Shown: one piece after another, positions 43,318 to 53,624 of the stretch
Numbering within the stretch: the stretch's first letter is position 1
Layout: every line of letters begins with the position of its first letter
The notes under the pieces: generated by a model
Told to the model about the DNA's origin: nothing
Database searches by the model: none
The model's input: only the letters and a program-made list of their open reading frames with translations
Assembly: GCA_964016885.1 (NCBI GenBank)
Contig: OZ024740.1
Location: 21,576,001-21,640,000 of the forward strand
Length of the DNA stretch: 64,000 nucleotides
Source: Eledone cirrhosa
Lineage: Eukaryota
Direction: 5' to 3'
Made by a program: the position numbers and the translations under genes

Positions 43318-43531
43318 TATATATATATATGTATATTTTATATATATATATATATATATATATATATATATATATATATATATTGAGTATGTCTTGGTTG
43401 TTTACCGACACCTCAGTATGCAGGTAGGAACACTCGACGAAGTACGCAGGCTGGTTTGTTCACTCCGGAGTAATGTAAAATAATAAGTGTAAGTCAAATA
43501 TGTTAAAGTTGGCTTCGTTTATTCAAATTCT

Positions 43532-43584
43532 CTGCTATATATATTTCAGTGACAGCCATTATTGGCTGTGACCTCATCAGGCAG
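43532..43584 (-). ncRNA. Minimal type I hammerhead ribozyme motif
   Basis: Minus strand reads CTGC-CTGATGA-GGTCACAGCC aataat GGCTGTCACT-GAAA-TATATA-TA-GCAG. Confidence 0.82.
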
Positions 43585-43750
43585 TAAGAATTAAGGTAGA
43601 AAAAACAGGAAAACATGATGTTGTAATGGGTTCTACCCCGTTAATTCATCGATATGTCTAGCCCCTGGGTGTGTTGTTAGTCCTGAAAGGAACTGGAATC
43701 ATATGGTTCCAGTTTCTTTGTTTTCCTGTTTTTTTCTGTCTTAATTCTTA

Positions 43751-43803
43751 CTGCCTGATGAGCTCACAGCCAATAATGGCTGTCACTGAAATATATATAG
43801 CAG
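43751..43803 (+). ncRNA. Minimal type I hammerhead ribozyme motif
   Basis: CTGC-CTGATGA-GCTCACAGCC aataat GGCTGTCACT-GAAA-TATATA-TA-GCAG. Confidence 0.78.
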
Positions 43804-43859
43804 CGAATTGGAATAAACGAAGCCATCTTTAACATGTTTGACTTACACTTATTATTTTA

Positions 43860-44296
43860 TATATATATAGTGGCCATGCAGGGACATCGTCTTAAAAGAA
43901 TTTAGTTGACCAAACCAACTTTCAGTACTCTAAACATTAGACCACGTACCTTTATAATACAGGATGAAAATAGAAACAAGGAGGGAGAAGTGATCAGAAG
44001 TTTTAGGCACCTAGATATTTCATGCTAAAATATATTTATATATACAACACAATATATTTCACGCTGTATATATATATATATATATATATACAGCGTGAAA
44101 TATATTGTGTTGTATATATAAATATATTTTAGCGTGAAATATCTAGGTGCCTAAAACTTCTGATCACTTCTCCCTCCTTGTTTCTATTTTCATCCTGTAT
44201 TATAAAGGTACGTGGTCTAATGTTTAGAGTACTGAAAGTTGGTTTGGTCAACTAAATTCTTTCAAGACGATGTCCCTGCATGACCACTATATATAT
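43860..44296. repeat. About 207-bp inverted duplication centred on a (TA)12 tract
   Basis: 43860-44066 mirrors 44091-44296 around TA repeats at 44067-44090. No hammerhead core seen. Confidence 0.9.
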
Positions 44297-44520
44297 CTAT
44301 GTGTTCATGTTAATGGCTTGATTTCTGGACCGGGAAGTGAGTGTCTTCAGTTCTTGAACAAGCTGTGTCATTTCACCTTACTTTTCGAGATATAATTGGA
44401 GCCTTTATTATTAGAATATCCGACAAACCTCCTATACGATACAACCGCGTAAGAAGCCAACTAAATCTGCATAAGTGTGATCTGTGAATTTAATTTTCTT
44501 TTTAATTTCTTTTATTTTAG

Positions 44521-44660
44521 TGGATGCCTCACAGAAAAGGTTTTGTTGTCGGTTTTGTAGTCGGTGGGTTTGGTGGTGCGGCCTTTATTTTCAACCTTGT
44601 CATCACGGCTTATATAAATCCGAATAATCTCAACCCTGATATTGAATCTAATGGAGAGCA
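44521..44660 (+). CDS. Exon B of the OxlT-like MFS transporter
   Basis: ttttattttag|...|gtgagt. Reads WMPHRKGFVVGFVVGGFGGAAFIFNLVITAYINPNNLNPDIESNGE and ends in phase 2 (CA). Confidence 0.92.
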
Positions 44661-45309
44661 GTGAGTATTTCTTTTTATCTCAACACTTCACTAAACCTTA
44701 CTTTTATCTGATTTATCTCTCTTACGCTTTTTTCTTTCCTTTTTCTTTCTTTCTTACTCTCTTTCTTTCTTCCTTACTCTCTTTCTTTCTCTCATATATA
44801 TATATATACATTTATATATGTATATTTAAATATATATATTTAAATATATACATTTAAATATAAAATATTTAAAAAAATAATGAATAAAACAAAGAAACAG
44901 TTCCTTATATTAAACAAAAAAAGTTCATTATTTAACGATCGTTTCTAGGACATATATGTGTTAGAATTGGCATGCATATTCAAAAGATCTATGTACAAAA
45001 TTATACAAACTATCAAGGAGAATATACATACCATCACATATATATGCTGTCTTCAGAAATAATGAAGTATATTTATTGATAATAACGACAATTCAAAATT
45101 ACAGGTCTGTTTGGGAACAGATTTTAAATAGACCAATGAAATACATAAAAATTCATCAAGAAAATACAGTTAGGTGTGTGTATATATGTAAGTAAATTCG
45201 TTCACAGATATGCATAAAAATGTATGTTCACATGCATACGCATGTCGAAAAAGTGTATGTAAATATAAAAATTTAGGGCTAATGTCTCTGTATGTTTATA
45301 ATCTACAGA

Positions 45310-51450: not shown

Positions 51451-52190
51451 CTACATTTTAAATTTAAATTTATATTTAAAAGTTGAGTTCAATCTATGTT
51501 TGCAGCAACTGAATAAATTTGTCCGTAGATTAAGGGAATTTTTAGATTTTAGTATAAAGAATATCTCCTCCGCGCAGAGGTCACATGTCTCAGAGGATGA
51601 ATTAAAAGGAATCCCTCTTGAGACTATATTCCAAGCCGTCGAATATCTAACGTTATCTTGCCTAAGTTGCCAGAGTACGCCTGATAGTGCTGTTGAAGAT
51701 TTTTTGCTTGGATCTGTAAAAGAATTCTTGTGGTTATTATAGCGAAGTTTAAATTCCGTCGATGTGGAACCGACGTAGTTAAAAGAATTAGAGTCCGTTT
51801 TAACATTACAGTTGTATATTATATTTTTAACTAAGCAGTTGTTATTTAACGGACATTTAGATCTATCTCTACAGTTACATTTGTTAACTTGTATATTATT
51901 TATGCTATTATCGCTAGGTTTTAAGTTCCTATTATTTATTCTATTAATATTTTGTGCTAAATTTTTGGTGGATGAGTAGGTTAATTTTATAGTATGTCTA
52001 TTGAAAATTGAGTGATACCTATGTGTTCTAGGGAAGCGATTATCAAGAGCTTTAAAAAATAGTTTAGCGATGTGGGTTTTAATGTTTAGTGAGAAAGGGG
52101 GGGCAAACCATATTATGTTCCTAGTTCTATTTCTTTTTTGGCTTTTGAAATTATTGTAATGCTTTCTATTATAGTTGTTAAGGTTGTGGC
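51451..52190 (-). pseudogene. Open (about 246-codon), start-less C-terminal part of a PLE ORF: RT-distal region + CxCx5C linker + GIY-YIG endonuclease
   Basis: Hand translation: RNRTRNIIWFAPPFSLNIKTHIAKLFF...IFNRHTIKLTYSSTKN...CNCRDRSKCPLNNNCLVKNIIY...YVGSTSTEFKLRYNNHKNSF...STALSGVLWQLR...CDLCAEE...LNLRTNLFSCCKHR...stop. No internal stop; absent from the ORF track. Confidence 0.92.
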
Positions 52191-52469
52191 TACTTTTCTC
52201 TATATATATCTATCTCTATCTATTTCCTCTCCCTATATATCTCTCTCTGTTTCTTTACATGAAGTTCTTCTCTTTATCTATCTTTCCATCTCTCTATTTT
52301 GTTGCATGCATTTCTTCTTTTTCTTCTTTTTCTTCGTTTTCTTTCTTTCTTTCCTTCTTTCTTTCTTTCTTTCTGTTTACAATTTTTCACTGCCAAATCA
52401 ACTTTTTCAAATACAAGTCGATGTTGAACGGTATGTCAAATCTATTTATCTATAAAACTGTCTATATTG

Positions 52470-52535
52470 TATTTTGTCTGAAGAAGGCATAACATATTGT
52501 TAATATGATATCCCTGAAATATATATAATGAAATA
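52470..52535 (+). ncRNA. Minimal type I hammerhead ribozyme motif in the inverted pLTR
   Basis: TATTTTGT-CTGAAGA-AGG..CATATT gtt AATATG..CCT-GAAA-TATATA-TA-ATGAAATA. 8-bp stem I with two G.U pairs. Confidence 0.8.
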
Positions 52536-52775
52536 AATATGGTTTTATAAATATAGTTTCCATTTATTTAATATCGTATATATATATATATATATATATA
52601 TATATATATATATATATATATATATATATATATATATATATATATATATATATATATATATGTATATATATATATATATATATATATATATATATATATA
52701 TATATATATGTATATATATATATATAAAATAAAGTTAAATAAAAGTCAAATGATTAAAATTTAGCTTCGTTTATT

Positions 52776-52830
52776 ACTGCTATATATATTTCAGTGACAG
52801 CCATCTTTGGCTGTGACCTCTTCAGGCAGT
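52776..52830 (-). ncRNA. Minimal type I hammerhead ribozyme motif
   Basis: Exact reverse complement of 53063-53117. Confidence 0.85.
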
Positions 52831-53062
52831 TTGAATTAGTATGGTATAGACAAGTACATATGTTGTTTAGGTGTATGATATTGTCAATACTCTGATATGC
52901 CCAGTTCCTTGTTGGGTTGTTAATTCACTGGGGAACTGGAGTCATATATGACTCCAGTTCCCCAGTGAATTAACAACCCAACAAGGAACTGGGCATATCA
53001 GAGTATTGACAATATCATACACCTAAACAACATATGTACTTGTCTATACCATACTAATTCAA

Positions 53063-53117
53063 ACTGCCTGAAGAGGTCACAGCCAAAGATGGCTGTCACT
53101 GAAATATATATAGCAGT
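53063..53117 (+). ncRNA. Minimal type I hammerhead ribozyme motif
   Basis: ACTGC-CTGAAGA-GGTCACAGCC aaagat GGCTGTCACT-GAAA-TATATA-TA-GCAGT. Confidence 0.85.
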
Positions 53118-53624
53118 AATAAACGAAGCTAAATTTTAATCATTTGACTTTTATTTAACTTTATTTTACACTACTCCGGAGTAACCAAACCAACCTGCGC
53201 ACTTCGTCGAGTGCTCCAGCCTGCATACTGAGGTGTTGGTATACAACCAACATAAACTCAAAATATATATATATATATATATATATATATATATATATAT
53301 ATATATATATATATATATATATACAGTTCAAGAGTAACCAATCTTAAAGAGGCAGATGGAGATAGGAGAGGAGAAGAGAGATTGGTGAATTAGTTAGAAG
53401 CCAAAGCGTAAAGGCATGTGCTCAATGTGCAATATGCAATGGAAGGCAGCTAGGTGGCTGGGTTCATGCAGAGGTTAGGTGCACAGAGCAGGAAATATTC
53501 ATTAGTTAAGGAAAGCAAGACCACAAATTCCACAAGGAAGACATTATTAAAAGATTGTCAACATAGTTTTAGTTTAATTTAAGGAATGTAGAGAATAATA
53601 ATAATAATAATATTAATAATGTCC

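Follow-up and report, generated by a model that had tools for sequence, protein, structure and literature searches.

How do two diverged copies of a palindromic element come to turn back at the same point and to stop at the same ends? The question is raised by a 64,000-nucleotide stretch of the Eledone cirrhosa genome (assembly GCA_964016885.1, contig OZ024740.1, positions 21,576,001 to 21,640,000 of the forward strand), hereinafter the window, in which positions are counted from its first letter. The window is AT-rich animal DNA with no N. It contains two copies of what we call family X, a hammerhead-bearing unit of ~320 nt (long arm plus tail) without an open reading frame (ORF). A preliminary description, made from the letters of the window, proposed that the second arm of each copy is either regenerated at a fixed hairpin at each insertion or homogenised afterwards. 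The former is probably right, given the fixed turn, the fixed ends and the grouping of arms by copy. Specifically, X is likely the pseudo-long terminal repeat (pLTR) and tail of a Hydra-type Penelope-like element (PLE), and each insertion likely makes the mirror arm afresh, from a single template.

Anatomy of the two copies

Copy 2 consists of a 444-bp perfect palindrome (52725–53168; 222 + 222 nt, arms 100% complementary) followed by a 95-nt tail. Copy 1 (43383–43859) has the same plan in the opposite orientation, in the order tail, long arm, turn and short arm. The long units of the two copies are 77.6% identical overall, with 86.0% identity in the tails (93 and 95 nt) and 63.9% in the ~84 nt beside the turn. 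Counted from the turn, the first 17 nt of the copy 1 short arm match the long arm, but the next 71 nt are missing, with 1-nt microhomology. Thus, the full palindrome is present in copy 2 only, and the earlier picture of a palindromic element present twice holds for copy 2 and has to be amended for copy 1. The same fold-back point was also claimed for both. Both turn centres do lie in one AT run, within ±1 nt, but they are one base per arm apart (CAT/ATG versus CATA/TATG). The other shared features, namely a tail of about 95 bp, the short-arm end TTATTTTA adjoining (TA)n, the turn hairpins, loop II and the ribozyme cores, are as first described.

In the window, (TA)n contacts 4/4 outer ends of the two copies. 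Because it lies on both flanks, a target-site duplication cannot be read. The longest stop-free stretch in the unit is 56 codons and is not shared in frame. The candidate 5'-terminal hairpin of copy 2 (51 nt) has a predicted energy of −14.8 kcal/mol (z −2.99; 2/200 shuffles equally good), and the hairpin of copy 1 is not significant against shuffles (z −0.59).

Two candidate interpretations were rejected. Stem II was considered as the site of a conserved ORF start, such as an anole PLE has there, since both copies have an ATG in it, but the frames end after 16 and 18 codons, with a 7-nt indel between the copies. A miniature inverted-repeat transposable element (MITE) or foldback DNA transposon does not suit the outer ends, which are not symmetric, one of them having an unpaired tail of 93–95 nt.

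Table 1. Features of family X and of the neighbouring inverted insertions in the window
Feature	Positions	Strand	Basis
(TA)n target tract left of copy 1	43318..43382	.	sequence
Copy 1 tail, 93 nt, long arm only	43383..43475	-	86% identity to copy 2 tail
Copy 1 long arm (pLTR; hammerhead-sense on - strand)	43476..43702	-	
Copy 1 minimal type I hammerhead, predicted cut after 43536	43532..43584	-	
Copy 1 turn, imperfect palindrome, 17+17 nt, centre CAT/ATG	43686..43719	.	
Copy 1 short arm; predicted hammerhead ~43751-43803 with stem-II G>C change	43703..43859	+	
Short (TA)n tract right of copy 1	43860..43869	.	
(TA)n target tract left of copy 2, also end flank of element Y	52580..52724	.	
Copy 2 short arm, 222 nt, exact reverse complement of long arm; predicted hammerhead 52776-52830	52725..52946	-	
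Copy 2 long arm (pLTR), begins at turn CATA/TATG	52947..53168	+	
Copy 2 predicted 5'-terminal hairpin of unit (candidate)	52947..52997	+	folding versus shuffles
Copy 2 minimal type I hammerhead, palindromic stem III (GAAATATATATA), predicted cut after 53112	53063..53117	+	
Copy 2 tail, 95 nt, long arm only	53169..53263	+	
(TA)n target tract right of copy 2	53264..53323	.	
Element W: inverted, hammerhead-bearing, ~140-nt tail, 64-nt spacer	35394-35934		
Element Y, comparator of other family: 5'-truncated Hydra-type PLE, inverted pLTR, one-sided ~80-nt tail	49902..52579	-	
Element Z: 536-nt arms 97% identical, 161-nt spacer, ~170-nt tail	~53324-54724		

Arms group by copy

Between the two distal arms of copy 1, identity is 94.9%, versus 78.6–80.0% to copy 2. 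In a four-arm alignment of 146 columns, 100 are invariant and 15 are gapped. Twenty-one columns group the arms by copy and none groups long arm with long arm (21 to 0), while the remaining 10 are changes in one copy-1 arm. For example, loop II is AATAAT in copy 1 and AAAGAT in copy 2, and the core is CTGATGA versus CTGAAGA, a difference that falls at hammerhead position 7 of the established numbering, which is free to vary. The greater likeness of arms within a copy, already noted at first, is thereby quantified. The arms group by copy, as expected with a second arm made at insertion. Higher identity within than between copies is expected of any PLE inverted insertion.

Could the whole palindrome of ~540 nt be the mobile unit, copied as one piece, with arms kept alike by later gene conversion? 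All three boundaries are common to both copies, consistent with such a unit, and close inverted repeats can convert each other. However, whole-palindrome inheritance would give drifting arms in subfamilies that are 20% apart, so the second arm was most likely made at insertion. The arms of copy 1 have drifted 5% apart without repair, which also speaks against the later homogenisation proposed at first. In addition, the long arm extends to the turn, but the starting points of short arms vary. A transcript across both arms is predicted to fold into one duplex (−414 kcal/mol), which would bury a hammerhead that is conserved in the family. We consider a whole-palindrome unit improbable.

Size, ends and joints of the family in public reads

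Four public runs (X1, X24, X4 and X17) were aligned to the long arm and tail of copy 2, a reference that starts at the turn. They yielded 2,750 contigs (X1), 7,585 of 12,467,656 reads (X24), 16 contigs (X4) and 0 reads (X17). The 16 contigs of X4 look like trace DNA. Words of the unit are present in 16 public runs under 13 organism labels, none of the listed ones RNA, and exact X DNA patterns have 0 matches in metagenome contigs, viral contigs and prokaryote genomes. The family is diverse, with 40 variant sites displayed and 58 more, including copy-1-like alleles and a subfamily with a 7-nt insertion. A rough estimate from a biased library gives 3,400–7,500 arm equivalents for an assumed genome size of 2.3–5 Gb. 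Because the family is large, diverse and genome-wide, the two copies are not a local duplication, a possibility that had been raised against a mobile family.

Summed contig depth is ~880,000 at the hammerhead and ~350,000–400,000 in the tail (~2.3x), which is not a copy number. The ratio is close to the 2:1 expected from two arms per tail. In X24, depth at 52962 holds at ~780, the level of fragments without the 52968 cut, indicating no steady 5' thinning.

At the other end, a contig of the independent run X4 has an arm that stops at 53168 and continues in TA repeats. The same contig bears on the perfect palindrome of copy 2, which might be an assembly or fold-back read artefact, since its identity is 222/222 and its junction is itself unseen in reads. 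Besides the recurrence of the 53168 end in an independent run, the symmetry of copy 2 leaves out the flanks and breaks off exactly where that of the aged copy 1 does. An artefact is therefore hardly credible.

Eight joints are listed, five of them between opposite strands. One side lies at 52947–52951 in four of these five, the other sides being 52984, 53063, 53083 and 53231. The four turn joints resemble copy 1, with the long arm complete to the turn and the short arm starting further in. The fifth (52971–53217) was rejected as a ligation product, since it has the AATT cut site of the library and a single start. Other than that, no opposite-strand joint with both sides internal is among the joints listed. 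Neither is a tail-to-head joint, although joints at the reference ends may be hidden. One side of these joints thus recurs at the turn, in a comparison that the start of the reference can bias. Taken together, the turn forms a fixed boundary, as does the end of the short arm.

The window contains three further inverted, one-tailed insertions in (TA)n, designated W, Y and Z. Such inversion is therefore ordinary here, and the peculiarity of X is its fixed inner end. The inner ends of W, Y and Z are unequal, with spacers of 64, 1,810 and 161 nt, respectively. This raises the question of whether a longer autonomous PLE gave rise to the X copies by ordinary 5' truncation at insertion, the turn being a truncation hotspot in its 3' untranslated region. 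The hammerhead of Y lies ~1.36 kb beyond the ORF stop, two contigs continue beyond the turn, and PLE hammerheads reside mostly in truncated pieces (PMC4209133), all consistent with truncation. Nevertheless, two subfamilies that are only 64% identical near the turn stop at most 1 nt apart, and agreement to ±2 nt would have a probability of 0.03–0.002 if truncation were uniform over 160–3,000 nt. The joints listed, the AATT joint aside, offer no opposite-strand example with both sides internal. Truncation at a hotspot seems to us unlikely.

Predicted ribozyme and Hydra-type neighbour

A strict hammerhead scan of the window from 32 to 64 kb gave 5 sites, versus 0 in each of 20 first-order Markov controls. 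Three of the five are X arms, and the fourth X arm, with the stem-II G>C change, appears only in a relaxed scan. A minimal type I hammerhead, its stem II long and its stem III palindromic (GAAATATATATA), is thus predicted in each X arm. A read variant, 53100 T>C, present in 1,734/4,057 reads, turns a stem II base pair from G-U into G-C, which fits selection on the hammerhead fold. An Rfam E-value scan gave 91 matches, none to a hammerhead family and none at the gathering score; those at the turn are microRNA and small nucleolar RNA models that fit a hairpin.

Measured from the predicted cut, the unit starts 165 nt upstream and ends 56 or 151 nt downstream. This geometry bears on the term retrozyme-like, used in the preliminary description. 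A retrozyme without long terminal repeats (non-LTR) is a tandem element with a ribozyme-processed circular RNA, and X, being short, non-coding, high in copy number and equipped with a type I hammerhead, resembles one; retrozymes have moreover been proposed as PLE derivatives (10.64898/2026.07.22.740005). However, X copies are head-to-head and not in tandem, the joints listed contain none from tail to head, the ends at 52947, 53168 and 53263 are off the cut site (after 53112), and the ribozyme is of the minimal PLE type. The term is thus best dropped, a retrozyme origin being very improbable.

A PLE-derived look, by contrast, was rightly perceived, and is consistent with the hammerhead type, the published anatomy of PLEs and the Hydra-type neighbour Y. 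The ORF end of Y (51451–52209, -) has 39–41% identity to four database proteins and carries CxCX5C, CxxC and CxH motifs; no relatives were found in viral contigs. Y shares stem III and the (TA)n target with X, and copy 2 sits in the TA tract at the end of Y. The short arm ends at similar distances past the predicted cut in W (~49–55 nt), Y (52 nt) and X (56 and 60 nt), and tail motifs of X, Y and W align in a multiple alignment. Close to their inner ends, copy 1 and W have an 11-nt word in common, which is not significant.

A model for the mirror arm

We propose that X inserts through an RNA intermediate. The PLE endonuclease would nick (TA)n, and reverse transcription would start at the tail end and stop at the fixed RNA 5' end. 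The end of the complementary DNA (cDNA), a self-complementary AT run, would then fold back and prime the second arm, which would be linked to the opposite side of the target at a second fixed site, 56 nt beyond the ribozyme cut. Joining at the arm-end site would leave the tail on one side only. Lopsided copies like copy 1 could arise by priming or skipping further in, or by later deletion. For fold-back chemistry, as a step by itself, we see about an even chance.

The source RNA may come from a non-autonomous master, an option that we slightly favour, or, with a little less probability, from the upstream pLTR of an autonomous element, in which case internal initiation in that pLTR would copy only back to the transcript start. 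A more specific proposal, which we hold tentatively, is that X is a high-copy non-autonomous mini-PLE, whose structured RNA with a fixed 5' end is self-primed by a Hydra-type enzyme into a head-to-head doublet at each insertion. If so, thousands of copies with an invariant turn and resolution site would be a natural record that separates fold-back from twin priming.

In twin priming, a dimeric PLE enzyme would nick both strands, and two cDNAs, one from the tail end and one from the arm end, would reach the fixed RNA 5' end and join via their self-complementary AT ends, so that the second arm would be another cDNA instead of a fold-back product. In vitro, both target strands are cleaved and extended by an anole PLE, which initiates at two tail-bounding sites (PMC11167929). 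Twin priming directly explains the fixed short-arm end, as well as short arms that start internally (52984, 53063, 53083) and the tail-only inverted piece at 53231. On two RNAs, however, it predicts arms of mixed subfamilies, while arms were matched in 2/2 copies, so that one RNA must serve both primers, and the 17-nt palindrome that precedes the jump in copy 1 needs an extra step. We regard twin priming as doubtful but as a close rival: the data fit both it and fold-back, and we favour one template.

Several observations weigh against copying of the mirror arm by fold-back from a Hydra-type PLE. A direct fold-back loop would not fit into the centre of copy 1 (CATATG), which calls either for one AT to have been lost later or for two ends to have annealed. 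No 52947/52947 fold-back joint is among the joints listed in any run; exact fold-back reads may sit among 2,077 reads that overrun the reference ends, and perfect palindromes may amplify badly. Since the reference starts at the turn, joints can be pulled there, which weakens the statement that they are pinned at the turn, and sequence further out is hidden. The four turn joints are supported by 3, 5, 3 and 9 reads, in a set in which 84% of aligned reads are chimeric. Record 1 of X1 has 115 unaligned letters upstream of 52953, and record 10 of X4 has 21 upstream of 52947; either could be a longer element. Pairwise, the X tail scores 19–24 against Y and W, with shuffled maxima of 29–31, a likeness at motif level only. 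Because this likeness is not significant and X has no protein, its clade is inferred by association. Finally, the X ribozyme is a prediction from motif and fold, and no X RNA was observed.

How PLE inverted repeats and one-sided tails form is named as unresolved in the literature (PMC8557442; PMC3846280, Discussion). A short, young, high-copy family with fixed ends supplies many independent insertions for counts of junctions and of how arms pair, and its 320-nt unit could serve as the template of an in vitro assay. Specialists on PLEs would find nothing unexpected in the structure itself, and the use of the family for the inversion mechanism is modest. X-type copies are likely mislabelled as MITEs or microRNA hairpins.

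Host gene and other features of the window

The exon at 44521–44661 has 78% identity to an oxalate:formate antiporter-like major facilitator superfamily (MFS) protein of Octopus bimaculoides, which marks the host as an octopod, and further exons of the same gene are at 34639–34806, 37821–37949 and 60931–61068. According to this exon map, both copies of X are in introns of that gene, in which they would fold into long double-stranded RNA.

Several PLE-like features accompany W, Y and Z. Element Z has a possible hammerhead variant with a CCGATGA core, a very long stem II and a CAATTG stem III. A second Y-like relic (61480–62470) has a hammerhead core at 62368 (+) and a tail-like piece at ~61505–61560. 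A PLE-like ORF, of which 63195–64000 (-) holds the 3' part, weakly matches GIY-YIG (E 0.004); its motifs differ from those of Y, and it probably belongs to another clade.

Beside copy 1, 43870–44290 is a 98% palindrome with a central (TA)n and symmetric ends, in which no hammerhead was found. On the other side, a Tc1/mariner-like element (42010–43320) with terminal inverted repeats and a DDE_3 match adjoins the TA tract of copy 1. More palindromic or nested inverted repeats lie in TA tracts at 41035–41942, 48706–48933 and 49014–49166.

The rest of the window holds a broken Helitron (~27500–34267; Helitron_like_N and PIF1 matches) with a duplicated 380-nt end and, just past its helicase frame (32814–32893), a weak match to a ribozyme like that of hepatitis delta virus (E 0.14). 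A non-LTR retrotransposon reverse transcriptase (RVT_1) is at 24777–27029 (-). Positions 1–23500 and 55600–56900 hold a 10-bp satellite (~14.5 kb), which is followed by another satellite, and a tandem array with units of ~28 bp. A repeat like short interspersed elements, with many copies and some inverted pairs, occurs at 34830–35010, 35950–36060 and 57557–60036.

Comparison with known systems

In the literature covered (subscription papers and the repeat databases Repbase and Dfam being outside the scope), neither family X nor a high-copy fixed-turn doublet is described, and no paper was found that joins non-autonomous Penelope elements with palindromes. Two X motifs were not found in the supplement of PMC8557442, in which long cells may be cut, nor were X motifs found in that of PMC13282606, which holds no sequence library. 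The latter work, a 2026 annotation of Octopus vulgaris, assigns 6.83% of the genome to 190 families of Penelope-like elements, and its main text does not contain 'palindrom', 'hairpin' or 'ribozyme'.

In Schistosoma mansoni, paired minimal hammerheads on opposite strands are separated by 100–700 bp (Cervera and de la Pena 2014, PMC4209133). Like the minimal hammerheads of metazoan PLEs, those of X have a long helix II, a short helix I and a palindromic helix III region. Unlike in X, fixed turn points are not described for S. mansoni in the sections of that report on these pairs. Non-LTR retrozymes, like X, are short, non-coding, equipped with a type I hammerhead and likely PLE-derived. They differ in being head-to-tail tandem repeats processed at the ribozyme (PMC7229834; 10.64898/2026.07.22.740005), with circular RNAs that run from cut to cut, whereas the arms of X are head-to-head and its ends bear no relation to the cut. 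Chlamys PLEs such as MRC1 likewise include ORF-less derivatives that form pLTRs, but these are head-to-tail and multicopy, from green algae and from a clade mostly without hammerheads (PMC8557442).

PLE copies in general may have an adjacent inverted copy at the 5' end, a tail at one end and (TA)n targeting (Craig et al. 2021, PMC8557442). Hydra-clade PLEs are characterised by a CxCX5C linker, CxxC and CxH motifs, no CCHH, a hammerhead in the pLTR and insertion in (TA)n, although (TA)n insertion also occurs in other clades such as Naiad (PMC8557442). X shares the pLTR hammerhead and (TA)n insertion with the Hydra clade, and its neighbour Y combines Hydra motifs with the stem III of X. Unlike in that clade, no protein is tied to X, and membership is by association.

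The closest parallel is with endonuclease-positive (EN+) Penelope elements. X has traits of their pLTRs, among them a tail at one end, a palindrome where the inverted arms meet and a predicted minimal hammerhead of type I. In Adineta vaga, Pen2, Pen2a and Pen3a have pLTRs of 193–218 bp with palindromes of 18 and 38 bp at the 5' end (Arkhipova et al. 2013, PMC3846280). An inverted pLTR there is 37 bp shorter, solo pLTRs are noted, and the junction palindromes are read as self-priming (PMC3846280). The idea of a regenerated arm, published in 2013, is thus not new. X differs from these elements in having no ORF, in numbering probably thousands of copies, and in its ability to be a perfect 444-bp palindrome. 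Its tails of 93–95 nt are also longer, both than the tails of about 31 nt in A. vaga and than the 30–40 bp reported for PLE tails (PMC8557442). Other than that, the two are alike in an arm of ~200 bp (222 nt in X), a head-to-head inverted copy, the shorter inverted pLTR, a one-sided tail and a palindrome at the junction.

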